Notes under the pieces: generated by a model | What the model saw: only the letters and a program-made list of their open reading frames with translations | Database searches by the model: none | What the model was told of the DNA's origin: nothing | Source of the DNA: Verrucomicrobiota bacterium | GTDB lineage: Bacteria > Verrucomicrobiota > Lentisphaeria > JABSQK01 > JAJFLO01 | DNA length: 64,000 nt | Assembly: GCA_021772615.1 (NCBI GenBank) | Contig: JAJFLQ010000070.1 | Span: forward strand, 29,145 to 93,144 | Reading direction: 5' to 3' | Shown here: in pieces, positions 917 to 59,890 of the stretch | Position numbering within the stretch: position 1 is the stretch's first letter | Layout: each line of letters begins with the position of its first letter | Made by a program: the position numbers and the translations under genes

Positions 917-3900
917 ATGACGATAGTTGCGAACAAAAAAGTTGTTTTTCTTTCCGTCCTTTCGACGATGTTGCTCCCCGGCCTACTTTTTGGTCAGATG
1001 TTCGACGGCACCCGAAGCGTAAGAGACGCATCGTCAGGGGATGTCGTAACCTGTTATACGTCAGGAAGTAATGTTGAGGTTACCATCGAAATTTCTGCTG
1101 CCACGGGTGATTCCAGTAATTTTGGATCATGGACGGTGGATGATGGCGTGCCGGACGGATGGTCGTTTGTAAGCGCGACCGATAACGGTCAATTTGATGC
1201 TGTCGGTGATCGTGTTAGCTGGACGGCTACCGGCAATCCGCCCAACGAACTCAGATACGTCCTTACTCCTGCGTCGACGGGTACCGCTGTTTTTTCCGTG
1301 AACGATATCGCAGGATTCAGCGGAGGCCTCATCGAGGGCACCATGGTCGACACAACCGTAGTTGAATGTGCCGATGCCGATTTGACGGCCAGCCTCGATA
1401 ACCCCGCCAACTCCGAACTGAACGTCGCCCAGAACACGCTGTCGCGCATGGTCAGTAACGGCAGCAACAGCGGTGATTTTACCGCGACGTTTAACGCGAT
1501 CGGTGCGCCTGGAAAGCCTGAGTTGGATCTGCTGTTTTTTCGTGTTGTAAAGGCGCAGGCCGGCGGACCACCATGGAATGTCAGCGACCCGATCGACGAG
1601 AGCAACAGTCCGACGTTCACTATGAGCAACGACGGCTGGCTACAGGTTGACGGCGAGCAGACAACAAGTACCAAGATAAATACCGCCAACAATTTTATGC
1701 ACACATTTAATATCGCGCTGGCTAATGCCGACTCCGACAGTCCGTCCGCGACAATCTCATGGGTCATCCCGACCGGGTTCATCGAATCAACGGTGGCCGA
1801 CGGAGAGGTGTACATCATGCAGATGCGGATCGTTGCATCAGGTGCCTTCGACACCAGCGGTCAATCCCTGGAACGTTTGTTGGGCGTGAATCAGCAAATG
1901 CCAGAAATCTTTCCAGTTGATCCTGCCGACGGCGGACTCGGGCCCGCGGTTGCATACTCGCAGGCAGGGACACACCAGGGCACGACCGGGCTCGCACGCC
2001 ATCCGGAAACCGGCTTGCTTTATGCCATTTTCCGGCCACAGGACCGGAATGCCACGCGTGTTCTGGGGCTCGTCAATCCCAATTCCGGTGAAATCGATAC
2101 CGTCGGCGATACCGGGCAGTCTATCGCGGATATCGCCTTTGGAGCCGATGGAACATTGTACGGCATCAGCGGCACGCGAGGACAAGGAGTATTCAGTGTT
2201 GCATCAGTATCAGCGGGTGACGTAAGTGAGCTTGACGGTGGCGATGTGCCGACCGTAGTTGAAACCGCTTTTTCAACCAATAGTCTTGCACTCAGTGGTA
2301 GCGAAACGGTCACGGTCCTGTTCGCTGGCGATGAATGGTTGATCGAGGACAATGACAGAGCCTTTGATTTGTCAATAGATTCCAGCACTCCCAACACTAT
2401 ACACGTATCGGAGGGCTCGAACACACTTTATTCAATCAGTCTCAATGACGGTAGCGTCACGGCATTGGTACGCATCGATGATTCCCCCGACGCCGCCGGA
2501 AAGGCTCTTGCATTCAATGACTCGGATGGCCTTCTTTATCATGCCTTCGGCTTCGATGCATCAGGATTTCAGGGGACGGGCATAGGCACGGGCTGCGGGT
2601 CGGGCGTTGGGTCTGGAAACAATCTCGACAATCGCAAATTCAAGAGTATCGATATCAGTGTGGATCCGCCAACGGTAACTGATATCAGTATTTCCGGTGA
2701 TGATTTCGATGAGCCGTTGGCTATGGCTTACGATACCGCCAACAACGATTTTATCCTTTCCGCAACCAACGAGAATTTGGAATTGACTTTTGTGTTTTCT
2801 GACACGCCGAACACGGCGACACCTTGTGCGACTTCAGTACAGCGTGCCGCGTGGTCCGGTGAGTCCGATGGTTTTGTCTCGGGAGCTAGTGTGATTACGG
2901 CGGGTGAAGTGACAGGGAACGCGGTGCGTTTGCAGGCCGATGTTCCAAATGTTTCCGGCGACCCACAGTTCATCGGAATACTTGAGTTTCCGGGTAAAGC
3001 GCCGGATGGCGGTCCCGCTTCTGGCGACAGCGACCTGAACGGAGGCAGTATTGGCGGCACGCTGATCGGTGGATCGATTTCTGTCGATGTCCGTCTTAGC
3101 TCGGTTAGGCCTGTGATCGTCCGCATATTGATCGGTAATGGCGAGGGCGACTTCTTCAAGGATTTCGAGGTTGACTCGACATCGTTTTCAACACTTTCGA
3201 TGAGCAACATACAGGCGAGTGACTTTACCGCGGAAGAGTCGGGTGCGGTGTTTAGCGGCGGAGTCTTTTCGTTTTCACTCGACATCCTTGCCGATGACGG
3301 ATTTGCGGCCGATAGCAATTTCTTCATTGATGTCGCCGATATCACGGTTGTGACAACTGGTGACGGCGGCGGAACACGGCAGGAAATTTTCAACGGTATC
3401 GCCGTTGGCGACGCGCTCGCCTTCGATGTGTTGGCAAGTGAGACCGCGCTCTTCAGGTTGTCTGCTTCTGGAGAGGCGACAATAATCACTGACGAACTTG
3501 ACAAGAAAGTCAAGGGGCTCGCGTTTTCGACGCAGTGGGAGGAAACCGTGTCATGGGCATTTAACGTGAATCCGTTTCAGCCTGTCGTTGCGAACGACGA
3601 CAACGATTCTGTCGACGCAGCCTTCTCCGTTGTCGAGGACTCAACAAACAATGTCCTGCCAATTCTGGCAAACGACCAAAATGGCGACGAAAACATCGAC
3701 CCGACGTCGATCGCGATCATTTCACAGCCGCGCTCGGACAGTACGCTGTCGATCGACGGCGGCGGCACGGTGCGATACTCGCCGGCACCGGATTTCTTTG
3801 GTACCGACACATTTACGTACACGGTAAACGATGCCGGTAGTCCGCCCGTTGCGTCAAACGAGGCCACGGTCATGATAACCGTCACGAACGTCAACGACGA

Positions 3901-6900
3901 TCCGATCGCATCCAACGACGATTTTGGGGATGGTGCTGACTCGGACGAGGATAGTGCTGTGACATTCAACGTGCTGACAAACGATTTTGATGTCGACGGC
4001 GATACGATTATTGTCATCGCTGTCGATGATAGCAGTGCCAGCGGCAGCGCAACATTCAATGCCAACGGTAACGTTACCTACAACCCGGATGACCTATTCG
4101 AATCGCTTGACGACGGCGAAAGCGACACCGACGTACTCACGTACACTATTAGCGACCAGGCCGGCGGCACGGCAATGGCGACAATCACAGTGACGATCAA
4201 TGGCGTCAATGACGCACCGGTAGCCGACGACGAAACCGCGTCGACAGACGAAGAAAGTGTCGTGACCACACCGGATGTCCTGGATGGCGACACAGACATC
4301 GAGGGCGATACGTTATCGATTGACAGCTTTGACAGTGTGAGCGCGGGCGGCGCCGCCGTGGCGCAAAACGGCAATGCATTCGATTACGATCCCAACGGTC
4401 AATTCGAGAGTCTCGCGCAGGGCGGTTCGACGCAGGACACCTTTAATTATCTGGTTAGCGACGGAGATCTCACCGACGAAGGACAGGTTACCGTCACCGT
4501 GTCGGGCGTCAATGATGCACCGACTGCGGTTGACCGCACGATTACTGTAACCACGGCCACCAGCACCGGCTCCCCCACAATTTTTGATCTTGAGGGTGAT
4601 GACGTTGATGACGGGCATGTCTTGACGATCGAGCAACTGTCGACACTAGTCCGTGTTGGCGGCAATGACGCATCGACAGCGACCACGCTGGACGCCACGC
4701 TTACCGGCCTCAGTGAGGTGCCGACACCGGTAGATACCGCTGCCACCGGGTCGGCGGCATTTAGCAACTGGAATCGCGCAAGCGATACGATTGATTTATC
4801 CGTGACGTTTTCAAATCTCTCCAGTCCGGTCGTTGGTGCGCACATACATGGCGCGGCAGGACCGACGGAAACCGCAAGTGTCGTGTTGAATCTGTTGGTG
4901 GACTCGCCGGCGCTTACCAATGCAGCTACCGATGTAACGTTGTCCACGAGTACCGGTGGCGCCATCACCGCTACGTGGGATTACAGCGGTTGCGACACGT
5001 CCGCATGCAATGGACTGGATGCTTCCGGAATCGAGGCGGCACTCGCGAGCGGTCAACTCTATGTCAACATCCATTCGCAGAATCATGCAGGCGGCGAGAT
5101 ACGCGGCCAGATTGGCCTGCCGTTGCGCGGCGGTGAGAGTTTTACCTTCAATGACGGCTCTGGCGTCGAGATGGAGCCGGGCGACCGTACTGCGGACGGC
5201 GCTGTGGATGGCGACGTCTACCAGTTCAGTTATCGCGTGGTCGATGAACATGATGCAGACTCGGGACAGCAACTGGTGACGATGAATGCAGTGGACAATC
5301 GCGTCCCGAACGCAGTTATCGACAATTTGACGTCGACGGATGAGGACACGGCTGTAGTGACCGAGAATGTACTGAGCAACGACTCGGACGACGACGGCGA
5401 CGACTTTACTATCGTTTCTCCGGTTGCGGATATCACCCTTGCCAGTGCGGGCGGCGGTATCGTTGTCCTCAACACCTCACCGGCGAATACGTTTACCTAT
5501 GATCCCAACGGACAATTCGAATTTCTCGCAGTCGGTGAGACGACGACGGACTCATTCACATATACCATCCGTGACGACAACAACGGTGAGGCGACAGGCA
5601 CGGTCGAGATTACGATCAACGGTGTGAATGACGATCCGATAGCCGCCGATGACGATTCCACCGACGGCGCCGAGAGCGATGAGGAAAACGAGGTGCTAAT
5701 CGATGTTCTTGCGAACGACAACGATCCGGATACATCGGACAATCCCAACTTAACCGTCACAGCGCTTGAAATTGCCGGACTTAAAGGCGATATCACGATC
5801 AGTAATAACGGTGACGACGTTACCTACAATCCCAATGGCCAGTTCGAATCGCTTGACGTCGGTGAGACGGACACCGACACCTTTGGCTACACGGTTTCCG
5901 ACGGCAATGGCGGCAGTGATACCGCGACCGTGACGGTCACGATAAATGGTGTGAACGATCTGCCGATAGCAGTAGATGATACCGACAGCACGGACGAAGA
6001 TACGCTGGTGTCGGTCAGCGTTCTTGGCAATGACGACGATCCCGATGACAGCGACCGGAATATCCTTGTGATTACGGCATTCGATTCAACCGGATCAACC
6101 GCCGGCATATCGATCAACGGAAGTGCGATTGATTACGATCCTTCAGGCCGTTTTGATGACCTGGATATCGGCGAGTCCGAAACGGTATCGTTCACTTATA
6201 CAATATCCGACGACAGCAACGCTGAGGCGACTGCTTCCGTCACGGTAACGATAAACGGTGTCAATGACGCCCCGACAGCTGTAGACGACGACGAATCGAC
6301 GACGGGAGATGCTGTGACCGACGAAGATACGGCGACCACGATTGATGTGCTGGAGAATGATCTTGATCCTGACGACCAGGGCATCCTCACGGCGTCGTTG
6401 CTCAGCGACGCGGGAATCAGCGGCGGTACGCTTACGGATAACGGAAACGGAACGTTCACGTTTGACCCGGCCGGTGACTTCGAGACGCTGGACGTGGACG
6501 AGTCGGACAGTGTCACCTTCACCTACACGGCTTCGGATGATAACGGCGCCACATCTACGGCGACCGTGACGATTACCATTGACGGCGTCAGCGACGCACC
6601 GGTTGCGTCAGCGTTCAATCTAAGTGTGAAGGCAAACAACTCCGACACCAATCCGAAAAACACAGTCGATGCCCCGTTATTCGCAACAGATATTGATGCC
6701 AGCGACACGGTTGACAGCGGCACCATTGTTTTCCGTGTCACGCGCCTGCCCGAGGATAAAGACGGCGGCAGCGCCGGTGATCTGCGTAAGCAGGGCGGCG
6801 GTTCCGTTGCGGAAGATGAGTCCATTACCGTTGTCGACCTGCCGTTGATCTTCGAGCCAGCCGCCGGGGCCCGTGGATTGATTACGTTCGATTATCTGGC

Positions 6901-9217
6901 TGAAGACGACAGTGGATTGCAATCCGCCGAGGTAACAATCAATATCACTGTGGGCGCGCCGCCGTGGTTTCCCTTTGTCACGCTGCCTGCAAGCGATACA
7001 ACGTTGGACAGCGAATTCTTTAATGTTCAGGTATACCAGGGAATTTCGGCGACACTGGATGCAAGCCTGGTGGTGTTGCCTGACGACGCCACTCCGCCGA
7101 GCGGCAGTGGAAGCACCGCGAGTGGCGATGTGTTTCTGATCGTTCGGGATACCGGCGATGACGGCGTATTTATCGACTTCGGCCTCGACGTCGACGGAAT
7201 CGATTACGGAGACCTCGATAATACGCATGGTGGAAACGGTACGGCGATTCATGTGCATAATGGCGGACCGTCGGAGCGTGGCCCGATCATCATTGACCTT
7301 CAGTGGTTCGGCGACAATCACGGGACGGTTTCGACCGGTACGGACAGCTTTTCGATTGATGTGCGGAATGCGGAGCTGACGCAGGTGCAGGGCAGTCATG
7401 ACACCGGGCTGACTCCCGCAGAAATTGTGGATCTGCTGAACACGAACAATACCTATGTCACCGTGCACGACGACGACTTCCCCACCGGGGCGTTACGGGC
7501 GAATCTGTGGGTGGATACTTTCTCAGGTCAATCTGTCGTGCTCGACGGTCCGACGGTCGTCGTTCCCAGCGATACGGATCCGCCATCCGGAAGCGGAAGT
7601 ACAGCGACGGGGGAGACCTCGCTATTGGTATATGACAATGGTGGAGGCGATATACGGTTCGACTTTGATCTGGCTGTCGACGGTATCGCATTCAATACAT
7701 TGGACATCACCGGCAACGGCGGTGTAGGCCATGGTGGAAACGGAACCGCGGTGCACATCCATCAAGGCGGTCCGACGGACCGCGGCGGTATCATTATCGA
7801 TGTCGAGTATTTCGCGACGGAAACGGTTTTCGGGTCGGTGACGGAAACCGATACCGGATTTGAATTCAGTGTAAAGGGCGCACCCGTCGATAGCGTACAG
7901 GGCGCACACAATACCGGGTTGACGCCGATTCGAATCCTGGATCTCGTTCGTCAGGGCCACAGTTATATCACCGTGCATGATTTGGATTTTCCGACGGGTG
8001 CGATTCGTGCGAATTTCGCAGCCGCTGTGAATTCGACCGGCGCGATCGAGGCGCCTGTTTTCGAAACGATCACGGATGAAACCGAAATCGCCGCCGAAAC
8101 GTACTTCCTCGCAGGTTTCACCGGCTTTCTGCCGAATGATTATCTCTTGTTTGCGCGTCCGGTGGATCTGGCATTGGGAATTAATAATCCTGCGGCATTT
8201 GGTGACTTCCTCAATGAGGTAGTGGACATCGAAGTAAACAGCTACGGCCGGGCCCGTGTCGGGGAATTTCCCGGGTCTGACATCGTTGATCAGGGTAACG
8301 GCGACGGTAGTTACGATTTATTTTTCAACGTCGAGAACGCACGTGGATTCGAAGTCATGGCGTCTGGAACGATAACGAATTTCGAGACAAGTCTGCGCAA
8401 GGTTTTTTCACCAGACGACAACGGCGATATCCCTCAAACACAGGAACAGGACGAACCCGAAACGATCGTGGTAACCGGAACGGATATGTTTGATGTGACG
8501 ATTTCTGCCTTCAATCCGATCGATGAACTGGTCCTGGGATTGCATCCTGTTGACTTCCCAGATTCCCCAATCGATCAGATGCAAAGCGCTAATCCTCCGG
8601 CGGTGACCCCGGGTAACCCCGGTGGGCTGCGGCCGCGTCGCGGCGATGTTATACAGGCGCCGCAGGGAACTGTGCCGGTAAACTTCAGTTGGAACCCAGT
8701 GGCCGGTGCGACGACGTACCGCGTGATCCTGTTTAACCTCGGAACCGGTAAGTTTATCATGAACATGACCGAATTCAGCAGCCTTGTCGCGCCGCCTGTA
8801 ACGCGGACGCTGGCGCCCGGCAAGTACAGCTGGTCGGTGCAGGCTGTCAATGCCGGAGGCGGTTCAACGTTGGCCAGCGCATGGACGAAACAACAGCAGT
8901 TTACAGTTATCGAAACATTATCGGTCCCAGTCATTGTCAACGTTGCCATTACATCGGCGCAACAACTTCAGCTTACGTTCGCGTCAGGGGGGCCGGGCAG
9001 TACTGGACAGCCCCCCGTGACTGTGGTAAACGCATTCTGGATCGATGCATCTAACATTGGATTAGGCTGGCAGCCATTAGATGGCTCTGATGTCGGCGGC
9101 GGCGTTTGGGACTTCGGCAATTCCGCAGATTTCGCAGCAGGAGATCTGGTAGAGATTCAGGGGCAGATTACGAATACCACTGGGATTGGTGAATTCTTTA
9201 AGTTCGATCTGGAGTAA
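917..9217 (+). CDS. Giant secreted adhesin-like protein (2766 aa): signal peptide, beta-propeller-like LY-repeat region, ~10 cadherin-like/VCBS-type repeats, three CHRD domains, Fn3-like domain, C-terminal GW/W.WD/DLE module.
   Basis: Single long ORF. N-terminal MTIVANKKVVFLSVLSTMLLPGLLFG signal. Repeated ...FTYTVSDGNGGSDTATVTVTINGVNDAP... units. CHRD signatures (LTGLSEVPTPVDTAATGSAAF ... GAHIHGAAGPTE ... YVNIHSQNHAGGEIRGQI). SWNPVAGATTYRV Fn3-like motif. Confidence 0.85.
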   Translation: MTIVANKKVVFLSVLSTMLLPGLLFGQMFDGTRSVRDASSGDVVTCYTSGSNVEVTIEISAATGDSSNFGSWTVDDGVPDGWSFVSATDNGQFDAVGDRVSWTATGNPPNELRYVLTPASTGTAVFSVNDIAGFSGGLIEGTMVDTTVVECADADLTASLDNPANSELNVAQNTLSRMVSNGSNSGDFTATFNAIGAPGKPELDLLFFRVVKAQAGGPPWNVSDPIDESNSPTFTMSNDGWLQVDGEQTTSTKINTANNFMHTFNIALANADSDSPSATISWVIPTGFIESTVADGEVYIMQMRIVASGAFDTSGQSLERLLGVNQQMPEIFPVDPADGGLGPAVAYSQAGTHQGTTGLARHPETGLLYAIFRPQDRNATRVLGLVNPNSGEIDTVGDTGQSIADIAFGADGTLYGISGTRGQGVFSVASVSAGDVSELDGGDVPTVVETAFSTNSLALSGSETVTVLFAGDEWLIEDNDRAFDLSIDSSTPNTIHVSEGSNTLYSISLNDGSVTALVRIDDSPDAAGKALAFNDSDGLLYHAFGFDASGFQGTGIGTGCGSGVGSGNNLDNRKFKSIDISVDPPTVTDISISGDDFDEPLAMAYDTANNDFILSATNENLELTFVFSDTPNTATPCATSVQRAAWSGESDGFVSGASVITAGEVTGNAVRLQADVPNVSGDPQFIGILEFPGKAPDGGPASGDSDLNGGSIGGTLIGGSISVDVRLSSVRPVIVRILIGNGEGDFFKDFEVDSTSFSTLSMSNIQASDFTAEESGAVFSGGVFSFSLDILADDGFAADSNFFIDVADITVVTTGDGGGTRQEIFNGIAVGDALAFDVLASETALFRLSASGEATIITDELDKKVKGLAFSTQWEETVSWAFNVNPFQPVVANDDNDSVDAAFSVVEDSTNNVLPILANDQNGDENIDPTSIAIISQPRSDSTLSIDGGGTVRYSPAPDFFGTDTFTYTVNDAGSPPVASNEATVMITVTNVNDDPIASNDDFGDGADSDEDSAVTFNVLTNDFDVDGDTIIVIAVDDSSASGSATFNANGNVTYNPDDLFESLDDGESDTDVLTYTISDQAGGTAMATITVTINGVNDAPVADDETASTDEESVVTTPDVLDGDTDIEGDTLSIDSFDSVSAGGAAVAQNGNAFDYDPNGQFESLAQGGSTQDTFNYLVSDGDLTDEGQVTVTVSGVNDAPTAVDRTITVTTATSTGSPTIFDLEGDDVDDGHVLTIEQLSTLVRVGGNDASTATTLDATLTGLSEVPTPVDTAATGSAAFSNWNRASDTIDLSVTFSNLSSPVVGAHIHGAAGPTETASVVLNLLVDSPALTNAATDVTLSTSTGGAITATWDYSGCDTSACNGLDASGIEAALASGQLYVNIHSQNHAGGEIRGQIGLPLRGGESFTFNDGSGVEMEPGDRTADGAVDGDVYQFSYRVVDEHDADSGQQLVTMNAVDNRVPNAVIDNLTSTDEDTAVVTENVLSNDSDDDGDDFTIVSPVADITLASAGGGIVVLNTSPANTFTYDPNGQFEFLAVGETTTDSFTYTIRDDNNGEATGTVEITINGVNDDPIAADDDSTDGAESDEENEVLIDVLANDNDPDTSDNPNLTVTALEIAGLKGDITISNNGDDVTYNPNGQFESLDVGETDTDTFGYTVSDGNGGSDTATVTVTINGVNDLPIAVDDTDSTDEDTLVSVSVLGNDDDPDDSDRNILVITAFDSTGSTAGISINGSAIDYDPSGRFDDLDIGESETVSFTYTISDDSNAEATASVTVTINGVNDAPTAVDDDESTTGDAVTDEDTATTIDVLENDLDPDDQGILTASLLSDAGISGGTLTDNGNGTFTFDPAGDFETLDVDESDSVTFTYTASDDNGATSTATVTITIDGVSDAPVASAFNLSVKANNSDTNPKNTVDAPLFATDIDASDTVDSGTIVFRVTRLPEDKDGGSAGDLRKQGGGSVAEDESITVVDLPLIFEPAAGARGLITFDYLAEDDSGLQSAEVTINITVGAPPWFPFVTLPASDTTLDSEFFNVQVYQGISATLDASLVVLPDDATPPSGSGSTASGDVFLIVRDTGDDGVFIDFGLDVDGIDYGDLDNTHGGNGTAIHVHNGGPSERGPIIIDLQWFGDNHGTVSTGTDSFSIDVRNAELTQVQGSHDTGLTPAEIVDLLNTNNTYVTVHDDDFPTGALRANLWVDTFSGQSVVLDGPTVVVPSDTDPPSGSGSTATGETSLLVYDNGGGDIRFDFDLAVDGIAFNTLDITGNGGVGHGGNGTAVHIHQGGPTDRGGIIIDVEYFATETVFGSVTETDTGFEFSVKGAPVDSVQGAHNTGLTPIRILDLVRQGHSYITVHDLDFPTGAIRANFAAAVNSTGAIEAPVFETITDETEIAAETYFLAGFTGFLPNDYLLFARPVDLALGINNPAAFGDFLNEVVDIEVNSYGRARVGEFPGSDIVDQGNGDGSYDLFFNVENARGFEVMASGTITNFETSLRKVFSPDDNGDIPQTQEQDEPETIVVTGTDMFDVTISAFNPIDELVLGLHPVDFPDSPIDQMQSANPPAVTPGNPGGLRPRRGDVIQAPQGTVPVNFSWNPVAGATTYRVILFNLGTGKFIMNMTEFSSLVAPPVTRTLAPGKYSWSVQAVNAGGGSTLASAWTKQQQFTVIETLSVPVIVNVAITSAQQLQLTFASGGPGSTGQPPVTVVNAFWIDASNIGLGWQPLDGSDVGGGVWDFGNSADFAAGDLVEIQGQITNTTGIGEFFKFDLE
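3557..4607 (+). repeat. Coding tandem repeats: cadherin-like/VCBS-type ~100-aa units (first block).
   Basis: Repeated VNDDP/VNDAP-terminated units with DxDGD and FTYTV motifs are visible in the translation. Confidence 0.6.
4690..5120 (+). other. CHRD domain 1 within the giant protein.
   Basis: LTGLSEVPTPVDTAATGSAAFSNW ... VGAHIHGAAGPTETASVV ... GQLYVNIHSQNHAGGEIRGQIG matches the CHRD consensus (EVPP ... AHIHxG ... YVNVHT ... GEIRGQI). Confidence 0.7.
5237..6722 (+). repeat. Coding tandem repeats: cadherin-like/VCBS-type ~100-aa units (second block, about 5 units).
   Basis: Units ending EITINGVNDDP, VTVTINGVNDLP, VTVTINGVNDAP, VTITIDGVSDAP. Confidence 0.6.
7070..8010 (+). other. CHRD domains 2 and 3 in tandem.
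   Basis: Two copies of the pattern ATPPSGSGSTASG / TDPPSGSGSTATG ... GNGTAIHVHNGGPSERGPIIID / GNGTAVHIHQGGPTDRGGIIID ... YVTVHDDDFPTGALRANL / YITVHDLDFPTGAIRANF. Confidence 0.6.
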
Positions 9218-9333
9218 CAGATCGGTGTTCATCTTGTCTGCGGTCCGATCATTCGGTTCGCTGACATCGCAACAGTCAGCATTGGACGTTTACATTGCGC
9301 AGTTACATCAAAATCATATTGAGGAGACAGTTG

Positions 9334-10215
9334 ATGAAATCTCGTAAGGTTAGTTTGGGTATATTTATTGCAACCATGCCGTTGTTGCTGGGGGCGGCTG
9401 AGATCTCGACGGAGGGAATGACGTTCCACATCGGCGCGAATTACCGGAATTTCGATGATGTCGAATTTCAGGGTTTCGCATTCGATAACTTCAATAATTC
9501 CGCGGTTGTCGGCGGACCATTTGGTGTTCAGGGTTTCGTTAATGTGGGGTCGAACCCGCCGCCCCAGATCCAGGCCGACTATGTCATGTTCGGTGGCTCC
9601 GAGGATGACACGGATGGCTGGGGACCGGGCTTCGGCATTGAGTTGCCGGTTGGTAACGAAGAGGAAGACATTGCCCTGAGTTTGGTCGGAAACTTCGGAT
9701 TTTTCAGTCTACAGGCTGGCGAAATCAGCTCGGACGGCCTGCTGACCGGATCTGCTCCTCACGATGTGCTAGGCGATGGAACGGTTGTTCCCATCAACCC
9801 GAATACGACACCGGACCCAACGCAGAATCTCACGCCAGGCGCGCCTACAGGGGTGCAAGTGGAAAATGACTTTGACATGGAGTTGTATGTACTGGATATC
9901 GGCCTTAAGGGCACTATCGGCGTAATGGATAATTTCGCTTTCGCTGTCGCAGCCGGGCCTACGCTGAGCATCGGCGACCTCGACACCTTTCAACGCGAGG
10001 TCGGTAGTGCCGGCGGACGGCGTACGAGTGATTCGGAAACAGACGTTGTTTTGGGACTGTATGTTAATCTTGAAGCCTCTTACCAGTTCAATGAATCGCT
10101 CGGAGTGTCTCTTGGGTATCGTTATGATTATGCTAGTGACGATGTCAGCACGGATCAGGCGGAGTTGGATTTGGATGGACATGGAGGTCAGATCCGCGTC
10201 AATATTGCTTTCTAG
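9334..10215 (+). CDS. Outer-membrane beta-barrel protein (OmpA-like/OMP_b-brl family), ~294 aa.
   Basis: GAGGAG RBS 7 nt upstream of the ATG at 9334. Signal peptide MKSRKVSLGIFIATMPLLLGAAE. Alternating hydrophobic beta-strand pattern. C-terminal ...GGQIRVNIAF ends in Phe. Upstream in-frame ATG at 9295 is less likely. Confidence 0.7.
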   Translation: MKSRKVSLGIFIATMPLLLGAAEISTEGMTFHIGANYRNFDDVEFQGFAFDNFNNSAVVGGPFGVQGFVNVGSNPPPQIQADYVMFGGSEDDTDGWGPGFGIELPVGNEEEDIALSLVGNFGFFSLQAGEISSDGLLTGSAPHDVLGDGTVVPINPNTTPDPTQNLTPGAPTGVQVENDFDMELYVLDIGLKGTIGVMDNFAFAVAAGPTLSIGDLDTFQREVGSAGGRRTSDSETDVVLGLYVNLEASYQFNESLGVSLGYRYDYASDDVSTDQAELDLDGHGGQIRVNIAF

Positions 10216-10263
10216 CATACATAACATCTCCATCACACGTTGCACCGATTATACGAGTTTATT

Positions 10264-13200
10264 ATGAACCGGTTTCCTCGGGAACCGGTTTTTTTATTTC
10301 GCAACATCAAGCCGTTGACCGCAGCGGTTCTGCTCTTGCTGGCAGCGTCGGGTCTTCGCGGCTATGGTGCGGTATCTACCCTGGTGTCGCGGGGTAGCGA
10401 CGGGCTGCCCGGAGTTGGGCATAGCGGACGCACCGATACCACGGCCGAAGGTATTGTTTACCGACGTGCGCACGTGGATGATAAGGGGGCTGTGTTCTTC
10501 CTGAGCCGTGCGCCGTTGGCGCCGGAGGACACAAACGGCGAAGTGAATGACCTGTATCGTTTTCGCGCCGCAACGGCTACCGTGATAGACTCACCTGTCG
10601 AAAGCGCATCTTTTCCCTCCGGGTGCACCGAGTTGTCGTCGGATATCTTCGATTTCGCAATATTCGGTGCATCGGACAATTGGTATGTCGCGCGGCAGAC
10701 ATCGCCGCTGCCTCCACCGCCTCCTCCTGAGTATCTGTTCTCCCTGACGATCGATGGGAGTAAGCGGGCGATTTTTTGCAGATCCGGCGTGAAACATATC
10801 GATTTTGCGAGTAGCGGAAATCTGGGCGTCTTTGATACGCAAATAGACGATTCGAGTATCCGCCATATTTGGCTGCACGAGGCGAATACGGATGGCGTTA
10901 CATCCATTACTGCAGATGCTGATGGAAACAGCTTCTGTCCTGTTATTTCTGATGACGGCAGTCATGTCTATTTCCTGTCCCAATCATCCAATCTGGCCGG
11001 CGCGCCCGGATTGCTGAAGTACGATGTGGCAGCGGATGTGACGACGTCTGTCGTATCGTTTCAAATCACGGAGCTGGACGCGGCTGTTGATGCGCCGCAT
11101 GTCAGTGAAAGCAGCGATGTCGTATGTTTTTCCTCGAAGAATACAGTCATCGTGAACAATGACACAAACGGAAAACGCGATGTGTTCGTATGCGATGCCG
11201 GCAATGTCGAGCGGATCACAGCGGACAATGGCGCACAGTCAAACGGCGATGACGATAGCCCTCGGCTGAGTCGTGACGGCCGTTATATCGTATTCAGATC
11301 GAATGCCGGTAACCTGATTCGTGACGGCGGTAACGGCCGCTATCAGATATACGTTCATGACCGATTCACACGGGTCATACAGTGTGTAAGCGTCACGAAC
11401 GATATCGCACCGGCGCTTGCAGATCGCGATTGTTACGCCCCCGAGATATCCCCGAACGGACGATATGTCACCTTTGTAACCGACGCCGTCAATCTTGCGG
11501 CACCGTACATGGCGGACGGACAGGTCAACGGTCATCAACAGGTTTATCTTGTTGACACCCGTCCGGCAGTCGCGGAGCATCACACGATCAGCGGTAGAAC
11601 GGGTAACGCGATCGAGTTCTACCTTCGCGGACAACATCCGGACGGACATGAATTGAGCTATGCGCTTCAATCGAGTCCATCTGATGGCGCTGTCAGGGAC
11701 AAAGACGGTACAGCGGTGGAAATCGGGATCCTTTTCGCGACCGATTCGTTCCCATGGTCGTACGAACCGAACAGTTCGTCAGTCTTGTCAGACTCGTTCG
11801 AGTTTCTGCTGCTATCGACAGATTCATTGCCTTCCCGTCCTGCTACCGTCAGCATGCGTTTGATCCCTACCGGCACGGGTTATATTCGACGCGTAAGTGT
11901 CAGTGAATCGGGTGGGGAGGGAACACAACATGCCTTCGATCGTACGGCACCAATTCCGTTGGGAAATGTGGATGTGAGTGACAGCGGGAATCGCATCGTC
12001 TTTGATTCTCGTTCAAGTGAATTGAATAGCGAGAATGTCAACACGAATTCTGATGTGTATGTGCATGACAGAATTGCAGGTCGTCTTTTTCAAATCAGTG
12101 CGATTCACGACCCGGCGAGCGGCATGGCGGCAATTTCAGGGGACGGAAGGTCTGTCGTCTATTTTACCGATGCTGGTCGACAATTGATCTGGCAGGCTGT
12201 GGCGTCGCGATCTGGTGTGGTGCTTGATACGTTCACTTTTCGCCCCGAGTCGGCGCCTGCCATATCTGATGATGGGACGCGCGTGGCGTTCCGTAACGGT
12301 GCCGCTCTGTATCTGTTCGACTTCAGCATCATGAATGCACCCGAGCTACTCATTGCGAATGGCGATGAACCCCAAATATCGGGCGATGGCAATGTAATAG
12401 CATACTCAAGCCTTGACGATGATATGATTCATTTGTTCTACGTAACTTCGCGAAGCTCGCCGTCGTTCTCAATTGCCGGCTCGGAGCCGCAACTCTCCGT
12501 AAGCGGAAGGTATCTGGCTTATCTTAATGAGAGCGGGCGGCCCGAAAGACGAAATCTTGTATCTGGAGAGGTCGTTGGTCCGGATGTTGGGGCGTCGACA
12601 AACACGTCGATTTCCGGCACTGGTCGTTTTGTTTACTACACTAAAGGAGGGCAGGGGTTTCGTTACGATGCTAATCTGGACATCGTTGAAGCCGTCAGCG
12701 CGACTGCGACCGAAGTTGGCGACGACACGACATTTGCCGGTGTCCTGTCCAGTTCCGGATCTGTCGCTGCGTTTGCGTCTGATGCCGGAAACTTGGTGAA
12801 CGGTGACGTGAATAATAAGCGTGATATATTTACAACAATTTTCCCATTGCCACAGAATTCATTGCCAGCCGCGGATGCACCGGATCTTATAGTGATGGAA
12901 GATTCAGAGTCGATATCAATTCCATTGAGCTATACCGATGCCGAGGGTGATGATGTCGAAACAATGGTTACAGAAGCTCCGTCACACGCGGGGATGTTTG
13001 TGCTCAGTCCGCCTGTATTCGGGTCCGCGTTCTGGACGGTTGCGTACAAGCCGGCGGCAGATTTTTTCGGAACGGATTCGTTTTCATATCGGCTTCGTGA
13101 TGGTTCCGGATTCTGGACAAAGTCGGCAAGCGTCGCGATTACGGTGACCAACGTCAACGACCAACCGTCGATCGACGCGATTGACGATATGACCGTCGTG

Positions 13201-14811
13201 GAGGGCGGCACGCTACGTTTCCCTGTGATAGCCACGGATCCGGATCTGGACGACCTGACATTTACGGTGACGTCAGGAGTCGGGTCGATCAGCGACGGCA
13301 TGTTCGTGTATGAGCCGATGCATGATGTGGTGAGCCATAACGGTGATCCGCCATATACCAGGGCGTTCTCGGTTTCCGTCATGGTAAGTGACGGTCTCCT
13401 TGACGACACGACAACCTTTACAGTTACTATCACCGATCAGGACCAGCCTCCGGTAATCGAGGGAGACGTGACCCTGGAGCCGTTGGCGCCGCGAACCAGC
13501 GACAACCTTACGGTTCGGGCGACGGCGGGTGATCCGGACGGTGATGCCGTTGCTCTGAGCTACGTATGGATGCGCGACGGTGATTCCGCGGGGTTACCTG
13601 ACTCTGATACCATCGTGTCAGATCTAACCGCGAAGAATCAGACATGGAGTGTCGCTGTAACGGCAACGGCCGGTAATGCATCAACGGTTGTCTCAGGCAA
13701 TGCTGTCACGATACAGAACACACCGCCTGTTGTGTCGTCGATGACCGTCACGGTTGCGGAGGACAGTACCGAGACAATCGACTTGATTGCGAGTGACGGC
13801 GATGCCGATTCGCCGCTGCGCTATACGGTTCTGAACGGGCCTGAGCACGGCAGGCTCGAGAACGCGCCGCCGTCTCTTGTCTATGTTCCTGATCCGGACT
13901 ACTTCGGCTCGGACGCATTTCGTGTGATTGCGAGTGATGATACCGATGATTCCGCCACAGCAACAATTACCATCAATGTGACGCCGCAACCGGACGCACC
14001 GGAATTGGTGGTGGAAGACCTTATCCTGCTGAGTGGTACACGAACCGCCACGGTGGGATTCTCGCAGTTGAAGGTTGAGGATGTGGACGAACCAGACGGC
14101 GTGGCGAACGCAGATGTAACCGTGATCATCAATCAGCTGCCTGTCATCGGAGGATTCACGCACGGCGGCAACCCCGTCAGTGCCGGCGAGCGGATCGTAC
14201 TTTCCGCGTTTCCAATTGTGTTCGTACTTGCGGATGCGCTTGAGGATGATGTGTTCGTGAGCGACAGTGCGGTACTGACCGTCGAGCACCGTGATGATCC
14301 TGAAGGTGTTGCTTCCATGCCGGTGGAAATGGGCATTTACGTGGGTGCCGATGAGATCTCCATTGCCCTCAAGCGCGGGTGGAATTTGATATCCTTCCAG
14401 CACCCGCCGTTGAATCGTAGTTCGAGCGATTTACGCCTTGTTTCAGGTCGGGGGCTTGAACAGATGTGGTGCTGGGATCCGTTGCTGCAGCGGCTGCGGG
14501 CAATAACACAACTGCAACCGGCGAAGGCGAAAGGGTACTGGCTGTTTGCTCTGGAGGATGACGTTATTGCGAACTTGCCGGTCGGCGTTAGGGACAACGG
14601 CATGGTCGCCATCGAGCCATTGTGGAATCTTGTCGGGCCCGTTGGCGCTGGTGAGTCCGTGGCCGTGCCCGCAGAAGTGGGCGGTTTCGCGTGGTCATGG
14701 CGGGGCGATAAAAACGGATTCATCTACACCGATGCAATGCAAGAAGGCGAGGGCTACTGGCTATTTTTCGAAGCCGATGGGACGTCCCAGGTTGACCTTG
14801 GACTCGAGTAA
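10264..14811 (+). CDS. Large secreted protein (~1516 aa): signal peptide, >=12 TolB-like PD40 beta-propeller repeats, cadherin-like VNDQP repeats, tandem C-terminal GW/W.WD/GYWLF/VDL module.
   Basis: MNRFPREPVFLFRNIKPLTAAVLLLLAASG signal. Repeats such as ISDDGSHVYFLSQSSNLAG, LSRDGRYIVFRSNAGNLI, ISPNGRYVTFVTDAVNLA. VTNVNDQPSIDAIDD. C-terminal GWNLISF ... MWCWD ... KGYWLFA ... LWNLVGP ... FAWSWRG ... GYWLFFEADGTSQVDLGLE. Alternative upstream start at 10240. Confidence 0.85.
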   Translation: MNRFPREPVFLFRNIKPLTAAVLLLLAASGLRGYGAVSTLVSRGSDGLPGVGHSGRTDTTAEGIVYRRAHVDDKGAVFFLSRAPLAPEDTNGEVNDLYRFRAATATVIDSPVESASFPSGCTELSSDIFDFAIFGASDNWYVARQTSPLPPPPPPEYLFSLTIDGSKRAIFCRSGVKHIDFASSGNLGVFDTQIDDSSIRHIWLHEANTDGVTSITADADGNSFCPVISDDGSHVYFLSQSSNLAGAPGLLKYDVAADVTTSVVSFQITELDAAVDAPHVSESSDVVCFSSKNTVIVNNDTNGKRDVFVCDAGNVERITADNGAQSNGDDDSPRLSRDGRYIVFRSNAGNLIRDGGNGRYQIYVHDRFTRVIQCVSVTNDIAPALADRDCYAPEISPNGRYVTFVTDAVNLAAPYMADGQVNGHQQVYLVDTRPAVAEHHTISGRTGNAIEFYLRGQHPDGHELSYALQSSPSDGAVRDKDGTAVEIGILFATDSFPWSYEPNSSSVLSDSFEFLLLSTDSLPSRPATVSMRLIPTGTGYIRRVSVSESGGEGTQHAFDRTAPIPLGNVDVSDSGNRIVFDSRSSELNSENVNTNSDVYVHDRIAGRLFQISAIHDPASGMAAISGDGRSVVYFTDAGRQLIWQAVASRSGVVLDTFTFRPESAPAISDDGTRVAFRNGAALYLFDFSIMNAPELLIANGDEPQISGDGNVIAYSSLDDDMIHLFYVTSRSSPSFSIAGSEPQLSVSGRYLAYLNESGRPERRNLVSGEVVGPDVGASTNTSISGTGRFVYYTKGGQGFRYDANLDIVEAVSATATEVGDDTTFAGVLSSSGSVAAFASDAGNLVNGDVNNKRDIFTTIFPLPQNSLPAADAPDLIVMEDSESISIPLSYTDAEGDDVETMVTEAPSHAGMFVLSPPVFGSAFWTVAYKPAADFFGTDSFSYRLRDGSGFWTKSASVAITVTNVNDQPSIDAIDDMTVVEGGTLRFPVIATDPDLDDLTFTVTSGVGSISDGMFVYEPMHDVVSHNGDPPYTRAFSVSVMVSDGLLDDTTTFTVTITDQDQPPVIEGDVTLEPLAPRTSDNLTVRATAGDPDGDAVALSYVWMRDGDSAGLPDSDTIVSDLTAKNQTWSVAVTATAGNASTVVSGNAVTIQNTPPVVSSMTVTVAEDSTETIDLIASDGDADSPLRYTVLNGPEHGRLENAPPSLVYVPDPDYFGSDAFRVIASDDTDDSATATITINVTPQPDAPELVVEDLILLSGTRTATVGFSQLKVEDVDEPDGVANADVTVIINQLPVIGGFTHGGNPVSAGERIVLSAFPIVFVLADALEDDVFVSDSAVLTVEHRDDPEGVASMPVEMGIYVGADEISIALKRGWNLISFQHPPLNRSSSDLRLVSGRGLEQMWCWDPLLQRLRAITQLQPAKAKGYWLFALEDDVIANLPVGVRDNGMVAIEPLWNLVGPVGAGESVAVPAEVGGFAWSWRGDKNGFIYTDAMQEGEGYWLFFEADGTSQVDLGLE

Positions 14812-14867
14812 TTTACGGGCAGATCCTTGATGATTGGTTTGAGGGGAAATGATTCCATAAACCAATG

Positions 14868-15057
14868 TCGAAGAGGGTGTGAAAAATCTTGCTACGGCCA
14901 TTTACAGAACTGGAGAGGGTCTCGCACAAAGACACCAAGTCACAAGGAAGAAAGTTTGATCACGTCCGTGTCGAAGACCTTTGCGCCTTTGCGTGCGACG
15001 ATAAGTTTTGCTACGGCCACTGTATTGGAGAGGGTGTCGCGCAAAGGCGCAAAGAAA
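14868..15057. repeat. Non-coding degenerate direct repeats (~46 nt, two copies, plus shorter GTCGAAGA / GAGGGTGT motif copies) with an embedded perfect 15-nt inverted repeat.
   Basis: Copy 1 at 14889-14934 (ttgctacggccatttacagaactggagagggtctcgcacaaagac). Copy 2 at 15008-15054 (ttgctacggccactgtattggagagggtgtcgcgcaaaggcgcaaag). Inverted repeat ctttgcgcctttgcg (14979-14993) / cgcaaaggcgcaaag (15040-15054). Confidence 0.6.
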
Positions 15058-15245
15058 AATGGGATGGTTTTGTAACCCACATTTCCACACCCTAATATTC
15101 GGTGTGCCGGATAATTCTGGCCCTCAAGACTTGATCTCTCGCTGAAAACACAGCGGCGCACGGAGGATAAGCTACAAATATTGTCTTTCTCCCGATGCCC
15201 AGCGTTCTCAGCGAGAGCGACAGTCGTCTTATGCTCGATACGGAA

Positions 15246-15515
15246 TTACTTACCGGATATCGCGCCGTGCGTCCGAAACGAGCGGGTTGGAGAAAACTCT
15301 CCCAGCCGATGACCAACCATGTTCTCGGTGACAAACACCTGTATGAATGTTCGACCGTTGTGGACCTGGAAGGTGTGCCCAACGAAATCCGGCATGATCA
15401 TTGAACGCCGCGACCATGTCTTGATTGGTCGCTTTTCTCCACGTGCGTCGAGCCGACGAACTTTCTTCATCACATGCTCGTCGTAGAACGGTCCCTTTTT
15501 GACAGATCTGCCCAT
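15246..15515 (-). CDS. rpsS: 30S ribosomal protein S19.
   Basis: [19 protein letters not shown] ... [27 protein letters not shown] ... [17 protein letters not shown] matches the S19 hallmarks. Start is the internal Met of ORF 15246..15644, 1 nt after the rplB stop. Confidence 0.93.
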
Positions 15516-15516
15516 G

Positions 15517-16347
15517 CTATTTCTTTCTCCGTTCGATAATGAATTTATTGGACGTCTTGCGTTTATTCCGGGTGCGATAGCCTTTTGCAAGCTGCCCCCA
15601 GGGAGATACAGGATGACTGCCGCCACTTGACCGGCCCTCACCACCGCCCATTGGGTGGTCGACTGGATTCATCGCCACACCACGCGTCGTCGGACGGACA
15701 CCGAGATACCGCTTCTTGCCGGCCTTGCCAAGCGATATTTTCATGTGCTCGCCGTTACCGACCTGCCCTATTGTCGCCATGCATTTCACATGAATCTGGC
15801 GAATCTCCCCGCTTGGCAGACGCACCTGAGCGTATTTTCCTTCCTTGGCGCGAATGATGGCCTGCTGGCCGGCGGCCCGAACCAAAGCGCCGCCCTTTCC
15901 GGGAGTCAGTTCGATATTGTGGATGGCTATGCCCGGCGGAATCTTGCCTAGCGGCAAGGCGTTGCCAACCTTGAATGGTGCGTCGGCCTCGCTGCTTACG
16001 ATCGTCATTCCTACGGTTAGTCCGTTGGGGGCAAGAATATACAGTTTCTCACCATCAAGATAATGGAGCAACGCGATATTGGCACTGCGATTGGGATCGT
16101 ATTCGATTGCTGCGACTTTTGCCGGAATATCGAATTTCTTGCGCTTAAAGTCGATCTGGCGATACGAGCGCTTTACGCCGCCACCGCGATGACGCACCGT
16201 CATTTTTCCCTGGTTATTGCGGCCGCCGGTAGATTTCTTTCCTCTTACCAGACGCTTTTCCGGTGTCGCACGAGTAAGCTCGGCAAAGCCGGATACCGTC
16301 ATGTGCCGCCGGGACGGTGTGGTTGGTTTATATTGCTTTAACGCCAT
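15517..16347 (-). CDS. rplB: 50S ribosomal protein L2.
   Basis: [18 protein letters not shown] ... conserved L2 sequence, 276 aa. Confidence 0.97.
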
Positions 16348-34284: not shown

Positions 34285-35481
34285 CTATTCGATGATGTCC
34301 GTGACGCGACCTGCACCGACAGTGCGACCACCTTCACGTATCGCGAAGCGCAAGGTTTTCTCCATCGCAATAGGGGCAATCAGCTCCACGTCAAGCGCGA
34401 CGTTGTCGCCTGGCATGACCATTTCCGTGCCCTCCGGCAGGGATGCGACGCCGGTCACATCAGTTGTGCGAAAATAGAACTGCGGCCGATAGCCATTGAA
34501 AAACGGCGTGTGCCTGCCGCCTTCCTCTTTGCTGAGAACATACACCTCGCCCTTGAATTTGGTGTGCGGCGTGATTGTGCCGGGCTTGGCGAGTACCTGC
34601 CCGCGCTCGACGTCGTCTTTTTTCGTTCCACGCAACAGGCAGCCTATGTTGTCTCCCGCCTCGCCGCGGTCAAGGATCTTGCGGAACATTTCAACGCCGG
34701 TGACGGTGGTTTTCTTCGTGTTGTGTATGCCCACGATTTCGACTTCTTCGCCGGTTTTGATAATACCGCGCTCACAGCGTCCGGTGACGACCGTTCCGCG
34801 TCCCTCGATTGAGAATACATCCTCGATCGGCATGAGAAATGCCTTGTCCAAATCGCGGACCGGTTCGGGAATGTACTCATCGACAGCCGACATGAGGTCG
34901 ACAATAGCCTTGCAATTCTCATGGGTGGCATCGCCTCCCGCTTCCATTGCTTTCAAGGCAGATCCGAATATAATAGGAATGTCGTCGCCGGGGAACTCAT
35001 ATTTCGACAGCAACTCGCGAACTTCGAGTTCGACTAACTCAAGCAGCTCGTCATCGTCTACCTGGTCGACTTTGTTTACAAAAACAACCATTGCCGGTAC
35101 GCCGACCTGACGAGCGAGGAGAATGTGTTCGCGCGTTTGTGCCATGGGGCCGTCGGTGGCCGCGATCACCAGGATGGCGCCGTCCATTTGGGCGGCACCG
35201 GTAATCATGTTCTTCACATAGTCAGCGTGGCCCGGACAGTCGACATGCGCGTAGTGACGTTTCTCCGTCTGGTACTCTACGTGTGCTGTATTGATGGTAA
35301 TACCGCGTTCGCGCTCTTCCGGTGCGTTGTCGATTTCGGCATATGATTTCGCATCGCCGCCGAATGATTGGGAAAGCGTCATGGTGATAGCGGCTGTCAA
35401 TGTGGTCTTGCCGTGATCGACGTGGCCAATCGTGCCGATATTCAAGTGCGGTTTGTTGCGTTCAAAAACTGCTTTAGCCAT
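34285..35481 (-). CDS. tuf: Elongation factor Tu.
   Basis: [33 protein letters not shown] ... 398 aa full-length EF-Tu. Confidence 0.98.
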
Positions 35482-58303: not shown

Positions 58304-59890
58304 CTACAGATCGCCGGCGGTGTTCACGCTCTGGATCGTAATCGGATCGGTCGATACATCGCCAAATCCGCTGCGTACGGCGTCTACGCGCAGCACCGGG
58401 TTGGCGCCGGATGCATCAACCGTCATGTCGGCAGTGACGGCCGCCGAATCAAAGTTGGTGATATCATTCACGCGTTGCGCGGGCACCACGACACGAAGCA
58501 CATCTCCTTGTGCAAAGGCATTGAACCCGGGAGAATCCAGATACATCGTCATCGGCGCGGTTGGCGGCAACATGCTTGTGTCAGCCTGTGACGGCACCGA
58601 CAGACCCGCTATTGATCCGCCGTCGGCGACAAGGACAACCCAGTGCACGTGGTACACGGCGCCGTCTGCAGCATCATCGTACACGCCATTGAAATTCTCG
58701 TCCCATAACGGAGTGTCGTCGAAATCCGGATGCGTCGTAACAGCCAGAGCCAACGTCCCGGCCTGTCCCTTAAATCCCACCGTCTCGGGAGTTAACGATG
58801 TGAGAAACACATAGCCGAGCACAGGTGCTCCGTCGACGCTGCCGTTTGCTACTGGAGTCTGTACCGCGACCTGTGCACCGGCCACGTCGATTGCGAACAC
58901 CAGCGTGTCGATCGATTGAACGTAGCTGACGGTAGCAGATTCGATAATGAGCGAATCGCTGTTTTCGGCGGTTGACGTCGCCGGCCACGCATTGTCCGGC
59001 GCTGTGCTCAAATTCGTAATCGGCGTGCCCGACAATGCTTCGCTGTCATAGATTTTCTCGACCGTAAGCAACGGCGTAGCGGCGGATGCATCGACCTGCA
59101 TGAATGCGGTAACGGCGGCGCTCACTTCGAAGGTCTTGTTGCGGCGCACCCGATCCAGCGGCACGATGACACTGATCGTGTTGCCGTCTTCGATAACCGC
59201 GAAGCCGGGCGAGTCGAGGTACATGGCCATTGGCGCTGTTGGCGGCAGCGGGTCGGCCGCGGTGTTCTGCAATACAGCCAGTCCTGTCGGTGCACGGTCG
59301 TCCTCGCCTAGCACAACCCAGTGCGAATGGTAGACCACTCCGTCGTCATCGTACGCCTGATTGTTGTCCTCATCCCACAATGGTGTGTCGTCAAAGTCCG
59401 GATGCGATGTAATCGCGAGCCCGACCGTGCCCGTCACACTGCCGAATCCAACCTCCTCCGGCGTCAATGTCGTCAGAAACACATAACCCAGCACCGGGGC
59501 GCCGTCGACGCTGCCCGCGGGCAGCGGCTTGACTGAGCCGGCGTCCGCCAATGCTTCTACCGAGAACACGATCGAATCGAGATTCGGTTCGTACACGGCC
59601 GCAGCCGAATTGATCTGGAAGGCGTCGTTGTCCACGTACAATTCACCTTGTACGAGATTCGCCTCGCGCAGGCCGTCACGGAGCGTGTCAATCTCGCATT
59701 GCAGCCCGTTAATAAAGTCAACTATCGCGTCGAAGTTCGCGTTTACTTCCGACGCCTTGGCCGGCGTCCCGGCAACGAATTCGTGCGGGATCGTTATCGA
59801 GTCCTGGCAATCGCCCTGACCAGCAGCCTGCTGTATGCCGATCACCTGTGCCAGCGACGTTAAGGCGACCGCAACAAGAGCATGACGCAT
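58304..59890 (-). CDS. Secreted protein of unknown function built from two tandem ~235-aa homologous units.
   Basis: Signal peptide MRHALVAVALTSLAQVIGIQQAAG. Each unit contains GSVDGAPVLGYVFLT[ST]LTPE[ET]VGF, HPDFDDTPLWDE, VYH[SV]HWVVL and LPPTAPM[AT]MYLDSPGF. The ORF extends to 59974. Confidence 0.75.
   Translation of the reverse strand: MRHALVAVALTSLAQVIGIQQAAGQGDCQDSITIPHEFVAGTPAKASEVNANFDAIVDFINGLQCEIDTLRDGLREANLVQGELYVDNDAFQINSAAAVYEPNLDSIVFSVEALADAGSVKPLPAGSVDGAPVLGYVFLTTLTPEEVGFGSVTGTVGLAITSHPDFDDTPLWDEDNNQAYDDDGVVYHSHWVVLGEDDRAPTGLAVLQNTAADPLPPTAPMAMYLDSPGFAVIEDGNTISVIVPLDRVRRNKTFEVSAAVTAFMQVDASAATPLLTVEKIYDSEALSGTPITNLSTAPDNAWPATSTAENSDSLIIESATVSYVQSIDTLVFAIDVAGAQVAVQTPVANGSVDGAPVLGYVFLTSLTPETVGFKGQAGTLALAVTTHPDFDDTPLWDENFNGVYDDAADGAVYHVHWVVLVADGGSIAGLSVPSQADTSMLPPTAPMTMYLDSPGFNAFAQGDVLRVVVPAQRVNDITNFDSAAVTADMTVDASGANPVLRVDAVRSGFGDVSTDPITIQSVNTAGDL

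Follow-up and report, generated by a model that had tools for sequence, protein, structure and literature searches.

The question raised by this locus is whether unrelated secreted proteins of a Verrucomicrobiota bacterium share a module at their C-termini and what such a module would do there. The window, i.e., the whole stretch of 64,000 nucleotides analyzed here (contig JAJFLQ010000070.1, positions 29,145 to 93,144), had been characterized in a preliminary description made from the sequence alone, in which three secreted proteins were proposed to share a Trp-rich C-terminus ending in DLE as a candidate sorting or anchoring signal. Part of this proposal was retained: two of the proteins share a module of ~70-75 amino acids (aa), present in three copies, but the third, a giant protein encoded at 917..9217, does not carry it. 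Carrier 1 is a 1515-aa secreted protein (10264..14811, plus strand) with a signal peptide, PD40 beta-propeller repeats and Big_9/cadherin-like domains (translation and Pfam), which terminates in a pair of module copies. Copy A (residues 1362-1442, nucleotides 14347..14589, plus strand; GWNLISFQHPP ... MWCWD ... GYWLF) belongs to the subtype found first in a pair. Copy B (residues 1443-1515, 14590..14808, plus strand; LWNLVGP ... AWSWRG ... GYWLFF ... VDLGLE) belongs to the subtype found second and runs up to the stop codon. Carrier 2 is a 254-aa secreted protein whose translation likewise starts with a signal peptide; Trp-rich repeats are found in its N-terminal part, and one TSP3 repeat precedes its only module copy. 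The peptides quoted earlier are present in the sequence, but the frame then given as 60020..60796 is a minus-strand frame, for which the annotation gives a protein at 60020..60784. Its module, copy S (residues 176-251, 60032..60259, minus strand; GWNLLSVARIPDNN ... VWVWD ... GHWVF ... VPVDLE), represents the single, TSP3-linked subtype. Directly upstream of copy S lies the bacterial calcium-binding TSP3 repeat DKDGDGLTDQQE (60248..60307, minus strand), which scores below threshold here (Pfam PF18884, 17.6 bits).

When all six frames of the window were scanned for the motifs, only carriers 1 and 2 turned out to combine the GWN, WNL and G[YH]W blocks. When aligned, the three copies are mutually 24-27% identical, with W, N, L, P, G, W, W, G, W, F and D being invariant. 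A non-circular profile was built from 53 copies of other organisms, excluding the window copies and the carrier 2 ortholog P0005, and was run on all 878 six-frame open reading frames (ORFs) of the window with the filters switched off. It detected copy S with 88.9 bits (independent E-value 6e-27), copy A with 36.8 bits (1e-10) and copy B with 22.8 bits (3e-6); the best ORF outside the carriers reached 4.5 bits. The similarity among the three copies is far beyond chance, and by this independent profile both carriers are assigned to one family, characterized by the motif order GWNL-WxW-GYW. The giant protein at 917..9217 (plus strand), a 2766-aa Big_9/cadherin/CHRD adhesin according to Pfam, is not a member. 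No profile match was found for it even at E ≤ 100 with filters off, its C-terminus scored -0.2 bits when tested alone, and the copy proposed for it aligns with the window copies at just 15% identity. Its last ~200 aa are instead homologous to the C-terminus of the syntenic ortholog at locus L010 (31% identity over 207 aa, E 5e-21), which contains neither Trp motifs nor DLE and terminates in ...FILIENNQ.

In an alignment of 57 diverse copies, the family signature reads L-x-x-G-W-N-L-[IV]-[SG], followed by W-x-W, by G-[YH]-W-[VIL]-[YF] and by one last strand. G12, W13, N14, L15, G58 and W60 are invariant or at least 90% conserved. These conserved positions correspond to blocks one to three of the consensus proposed earlier. 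The fourth block, a conserved DLE near the terminus, is absent from the orthologs of carrier 2, which terminate in IQLPENN, IQLQ, IQLQISE or IQLSLNE, and the ending also varies among the 132 carriers with a C-terminal module. Here, 31 of the 132 end in [LIVFW]P and 10 in LGx[EDN], the type of VDLGLE in the window (e.g., VDLGME, VDLGTE and VNLGTE), and the remainder are varied. DLE was rejected as a terminal signal on the basis of the ortholog endings and these counts. Conserved at the terminus is the last beta strand, with the stop codon directly after it: the distance from GYW to the C-terminus shows a sharp peak at 17 residues (39 proteins), and most other C-terminal carriers have 15-23 residues.

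A profile search of public databases, suggested in the preliminary description, uncovered a large family with a C-terminal bias. When a 7-sequence profile (A3) was run against 1.84 billion protein cluster representatives, 5726 of them were matched at E ≤ 1e-3; E ≤ 1e-10 was reached by 552 and E ≤ 1e-30 by 15. A word-index homology search seeded with the three window copies alone gave no match, and with the 57-copy profile it gave only 24 short 'hypothetical' proteins. Carriers 1 and 2 are identical to the database proteins P0007 and P0001, respectively. P0092 and P0097 are syntenic orthologs of carrier 1 and likewise terminate in a module pair, and the orthologs P0002 to P0006 of carrier 2 (42-47% identity) have kept the module. 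For the analysis of architectures, 152 proteins, i.e., the best A3 matches and the carrier 2 orthologs, were re-annotated with a broader profile. In 126 of them (83%) the module ends at most 5 residues from the C-terminus, and in 132 at most 10 residues from it, which bears out the bias toward the extreme C-terminus claimed at the outset. Two copies are present in 93 of the 152 carriers and one copy in 50, while the remainder contain 4 to 10. Neighboring copies are mostly separated by no more than 12 residues (103 of 130 gaps). Three subtypes could be distinguished, of which A and B occur in fixed order within pairs. Type A, the first of a pair, has the consensus GWNLiS.p..P, and type B, the second, GWNLiG without the ensuing P...f stretch. 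Type S, which is single or spaced, has the consensus TDP..Y.i.L.pGWNLvSLARvP.DNS..aiFG and often follows a TSP3 calcium-binding repeat. Several paralogs occur per genome: two are encoded in the 64-kb window, P0006 and P0037 lie on one contig, and P0055 and P0116 on another.

Not all copies are terminal. In P0139 from Kiritimatiellota, a pair is located at residues 40-190 just past the signal peptide and is followed by CarboxypepD_reg and FGE-sulfatase domains; in P0141, too, a pair follows the signal peptide directly. P0057 contains an internal pair between Flg_new_2 and Big_9/sortilin-BNR domains, and P0036 and P0048 contain two internal pairs each. The Cloacimonadota protein P0023 (3424 aa) has 8-10 copies, mostly paired along the protein, of a variant without the WxW block. 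The C-terminus of P0023 itself (VADVDGNGCVEAYDAALILMF) is dockerin-like, by eye only. Furthermore, a distant variant was detected in one Methanobacteriota archaeon (GWNLVGFPSF ... AYWVRV, E 1.4e-5). The family is thus large and uncurated, the domain is mobile among unrelated passengers, and its preference for the C-terminus is strong but not absolute.

These architectures bear on the reading that the module is a domain-type C-terminal sorting signal, comparable to the C-terminal domain (CTD) of the type IX secretion system (T9SS), which would be recognized by an outer-membrane translocon or attachment enzyme of bacteria of the Planctomycetes-Verrucomicrobia-Chlamydiae (PVC) group and related bacteria and might be removed or used for covalent anchoring. 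Such a signal would fit the fact that 83% of the best matches carry the module at the extreme C-terminus, the stop codon ~17 aa past GYW, the terminal residues conserved by subfamily, and the many unrelated signal-peptide proteins on which it occurs, with several paralogs in one genome, including the adjacent giant proteins at locus L008. However, tandem pairs are the rule, copies also lie just past the signal peptide or internally, up to 10 copies occur in one protein whose terminus (P0023) is different, and the archaeon with the distant variant has no outer membrane. The sorting-signal proposal of the preliminary description is therefore upheld in so far as a genuine, C-terminally biased domain exists, and weakened by the tandem pairs, the N-terminal and internal copies, the 10-copy P0023 and the archaeal variant. 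We consider it unlikely that the module is a signal of this kind. Equally improbable in our estimate is its more specific form, in which the module would be the recognition domain of an undiscovered surface sorting or attachment pathway of PVC-group and related bacteria, with the B- or S-type copy at the terminus as the element recognized; if true, this would be the second folded C-terminal domain used as a secretion or anchoring signal, after the T9SS CTD.

The passengers were analyzed with Pfam in 69 carriers. TSP3_bac was found most often (22 carriers, significant), followed by Big_9 (8), cadherin-like domains (5-6), cyclophilin-type peptidyl-prolyl isomerases (5) and PD40 (5). Further passenger domains are Ig, LamG, Calx-beta, FecR, HYR, peptidase M14, RCC1 and FG-GAP; some carriers have beta-helix/NosD domains, and one is of the FGE-sulfatase type. 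The module is spread over otherwise unrelated secreted proteins, comprising small proteins, enzymes and very long repeat adhesins. An N-terminus resembling a signal peptide was found in 98 of the 134 carriers starting with Met (~73%) by a crude hydrophobic-stretch heuristic. The named hosts are Verrucomicrobia (metagenome-assembled genome (MAG) OFTM167, locus L002), Kiritimatiellota, Cloacimonadota and Lentisphaerae.

Two further readings can be judged by the passengers. The module could be a lectin-like domain or carbohydrate-binding module (CBM) that targets its passenger to an external substrate or to a host or prey surface, e.g., to sulfated or other polysaccharides. As is typical of CBMs, the module has conserved aromatic residues, occurs in tandem and tends to be terminal; the hosts include polysaccharide-degrading lineages (Kiritimatiellota, Lentisphaerae and Verrucomicrobia), and the FGE-sulfatase-type carrier as well as those with beta-helix/NosD or LamG domains would suit such a role. 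On the other hand, no glycoside hydrolase or polysaccharide lyase is among the 25 commonest Pfam families of the 69 carriers, the passengers are dominated by adhesin-like Ig/cadherin repeats, peptidyl-prolyl isomerases and peptidases, and no Pfam CBM family was matched. Targeting to an external ligand is thus a possible but not a likely function. Alternatively, the module could be purely structural, i.e., a C-terminal folding cap or an oligomerization domain of long beta-rich stalk proteins without a specific ligand. Many carriers are indeed very long repeat adhesins, and the A-B pair acts as a fixed two-domain unit, but the module is also present on small proteins, cyclophilins and peptidases and at N-terminal positions. 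Moreover, an invariant Asn and several aromatic residues maintained across very divergent carriers suggest a conserved interaction, and a purely structural role appears very unlikely.

The structure prediction suggested in the preliminary description was carried out for copy S with AlphaFold. On the basis of the 57-sequence alignment, the predicted local distance difference test score (pLDDT) was 91.8 and the predicted template modeling score (pTM) 0.77, compared to a pLDDT of 65 with a 7-sequence alignment. The predicted fold is compact and all-beta, consisting of six main strands (4-9, 12-16, 39-43, 46-50, 59-63 and 67-72) in three hairpins and a short helix (27-31). The module has no transmembrane helix, as had been stated before. 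No known relative could be found. In Pfam-A (2025) and NCBIfam (June 2026), no match in the module regions of the window proteins was obtained at E ≤ 0.1, and for the 57 copies nothing meaningful was found at E ≤ 1, including Por_Secre_tail, CHU_C, GW/SH3, SLH, CBM and PEP-CTERM. A profile search of all PDB sequences yielded nothing (best E 0.4, a spurious match to RAG2), Foldseek found nothing below E 0.48 in the PDB or below E 0.19 in the viral fold library BFVD, and full-text literature searches on the module motif returned nothing relevant. The domain is undescribed within the reach of the libraries searched, in agreement with its earlier designation as uncharacterized. Neither of the two outcomes named at the outset as refuting the proposal, a match to a described C-terminal family or a lack of C-terminal bias, was thus obtained.

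Several known systems resemble the module in part. The T9SS type A CTD (Por_Secre_tail, PF18962/TIGR04183) is likewise an all-beta domain of ~70-100 aa without a transmembrane helix at the extreme C-terminus of unrelated signal-peptide proteins, and the similar size and all-beta character speak for a sorting signal. The module differs in being usually tandem and sometimes N-terminal or internal, and its named hosts are mainly PVC-group bacteria, in which a T9SS is not known to occur. Membership was rejected: PF18962 and TIGR04183 matched neither the 57 copies at E ≤ 1 nor any whole window protein, and there is no T9SS CTD, with its Ig-like beta-sandwich, among the fold matches listed. T9SS CTDs are single and terminal, whereas two copies are present in 93 of the 152 carriers and some are N-terminal or internal. 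The earlier statement that the module does not resemble the T9SS CTD is thus supported, and the lack of likeness in sequence and fold also speaks against a sorting signal of that type.

The GW modules of Listeria (SH3_8, PF13457) are comparable in length (~80 aa), in their conserved Gly-Trp and in their tandem C-terminal copies on diverse surface proteins, but the hosts of the module described here are diderm and lack teichoic acids. No PF13457 match was found and no SH3-like structure is among the fold matches listed, so GW/SH3 membership was rejected. For GW, SLH and CW_binding domains, a functional analogy is proposed, namely non-covalent retention with avidity. CBMs are also small beta domains with conserved aromatic residues, often duplicated and terminal in secreted multidomain proteins, but no Pfam CBM model matched at E ≤ 1 and the passengers are mostly not carbohydrate-active enzymes (CAZymes). 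The S subtype recalls the eukaryotic TSP3 and TSP_C arrangement in that its terminal beta domain comes straight after a calcium-binding TSP3 repeat. TSP_C comprises ~200 aa; the bacterial module is shorter with ~75 aa and has no sequence match to it.

PEP-CTERM/exosortase substrates share with the carriers a C-terminal feature on secreted proteins. The carrier termini ...GYWLFFEADGTSQVDLGLE and ...GHWVFSGSDSSVPVDLEASNP contain neither a hydrophobic helix nor a PEP motif or basic tail, and the module is predicted to be folded. PEP-CTERM membership was rejected accordingly, and the tests of sequence and fold led to the rejection of LPXTG-like and SLH membership as well, as the preliminary description had anticipated for PEP-CTERM and LPXTG. 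A C-terminal signal of type I secretion, as in RTX adhesins, was discarded as well: the window carriers have signal peptides, the module is predicted to be folded, and Pfam detected no RTX repeats.

Taken together, the data establish the module as an autonomously folding, ~70-75-residue, all-beta extracellular domain. Its function is tentatively interpreted, at somewhat less than an even chance, as the non-catalytic, non-covalent binding or tethering of proteins to the producer's own envelope or matrix. We infer a binding module rather than a single terminal signal because of the fixed-order pairs, the multi-copy arrays, the N-terminal and internal placement and the archaeal variant. Retention at the producer's own envelope or matrix is favored over an external substrate because the passengers are mostly adhesin-like repeats, foldases and peptidases and not CAZymes. 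According to the proposed mechanism, a Sec-exported passenger would carry the module mostly as an A-B pair or as a single TSP3-linked copy, with the chain ending after the last strand. The ligand to which the module would tether this passenger would be a repeating one, with a glycan or some other constituent of the producer's envelope or matrix as the most plausible candidate; the tandem copies would provide avidity, and the TSP3 repeats would serve as calcium-stiffened linkers. A possible contact site is indicated by the predicted secondary structure and the conservation. The G-Y-W-V-Y strand has conserved aromatic or hydrophobic residues on both faces. If the domain consists of two beta layers, one pair of aromatics would probably face outward, and it might serve as a platform for binding or as the interface between A and B.

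Some points weigh against tethering to the producer's own surface. The conserved Trp and Tyr residues may just form the hydrophobic core, and the sharp stop after the last strand together with the subfamily-specific endings (..LP in 31 of 132, LGxE in 10 of 132) could likewise be explained by a C-terminal signal that is recognized. In addition, the positional counts derive from the best ~150 matches of a profile seeded with C-terminal sequences, so the bias could be inflated, and the host names rest on a handful of carriers.

In the window, carrier 1 is the last gene of a three-gene unit (917..14811) encoding the giant adhesin, an outer-membrane beta-barrel protein (OMP) of 306 aa (9295..10215, plus strand; Pfam OMP_b-brl, 30.1 bits) without the module, and carrier 1, all on one strand. 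The unit is kept at L009 (1..11774) and L010 (3..10676), where homologs in the same positions are 39-43% (OMP) and 32-36% (carrier 1) identical. At both loci, the carrier 1 ortholog has an A-B pair at its end, and no module is present in the adhesin upstream. Together, the three genes may form a functional unit for surface adhesion that includes an outer-membrane component of its own. In the giant adhesin, three CHRD domains lie amid Big_9, cadherin-like and VCBS repeats, and a CHRD protein is also encoded near the carrier 2 ortholog at L006. In the window and at L009, the cluster abuts the ribosomal S10 operon. In the window, this operon converges on the end of carrier 1 and stops after rpsS (S19; 15246..15530, minus strand), with no rplV or rpsC next to it (14812..15245), and the same break is present at L009. 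The ORF of ribosomal protein L4 (16820..17800, minus strand) comprises 326 aa and matches Pfam only from residue 148; its L009 homolog was called at 381 aa. This speaks for a genuine extension of ~145 aa at the N-terminus.

Carrier 2 forms a conserved gene pair with a 556-aa secreted protein directly downstream (58304..59974, minus strand), which lacks the module, has no assigned family and is 58% and 66% identical to its homologs at L002 and L006. No Pfam or PDB match was found for this protein; it contains two internal repeats (HPDFDDTPLWDE ... YH.HWVVL). In the N-terminal part of carrier 2 (60400..60784, minus strand), Trp-rich units (SSNWDRMSWDWDNWF..., LWNTMTWTDDKWFIEFE) are separated by helical-looking segments. 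Two such units are present in carrier 2 and about four in P0002 and P0003, without a family match. L008 (1..30376 of an 8.8-Mb contig), a carrier locus unrelated to those of the window, contains three consecutive giant genes for proteins of at least 4210, 4791 and at least 4388 aa; an A-B pair terminates each of the first two. Calx-beta, FG-GAP and faint Peptidase_C13 matches were found in these giants.

A co-occurring processing enzyme or outer-membrane partner had been proposed as something to look for. None could be identified at the carrier loci: no neighboring gene recurs across the unrelated loci L006, L007, L008 and the window. The OMP gene was rejected as a linked partner, being conserved only in the orthologous cluster (L009 and L010) and absent from L006, L007 and L008. 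This counts against a sorting signal only as weak evidence, because the genes of sorting machineries usually lie apart from those of the cargo. The nearby PEP-CTERM protein reported earlier was located at 61185..61895 (plus strand). It is a small secreted protein of this type with a PEP motif, a hydrophobic helix and a basic tail (IPEPSTYMLFLTLLTGLVFLRHKRW), and its Pfam score of 18.4 bits lies below the cut-off of 20.7.

With regard to the host, the elongation factor EF-G encoded in the window has 74% identity to its counterpart in MAG GCA_021772635.1, with which the surrounding synteny is shared. No other sequence among about 15 billion proteins falls into the 90% identity cluster of EF-Tu (34285..35481, minus strand), an indication of a poorly sampled lineage.

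The retention and release of giant adhesins and surface enzymes in Verrucomicrobia, Kiritimatiellota and Lentisphaerae are largely unexplained. The domain marks thousands of surface proteins for which neither Pfam nor NCBIfam provides a model, and it merits a curated family model. It can be used as a handle for cataloguing surface proteomes, for the search for partners by phylogenetic profiling and for a test of the retention or sorting mechanism. If the module is a sorting signal after all, it would define a new pathway, and the finding would be highly interesting if a dedicated partner pathway exists.

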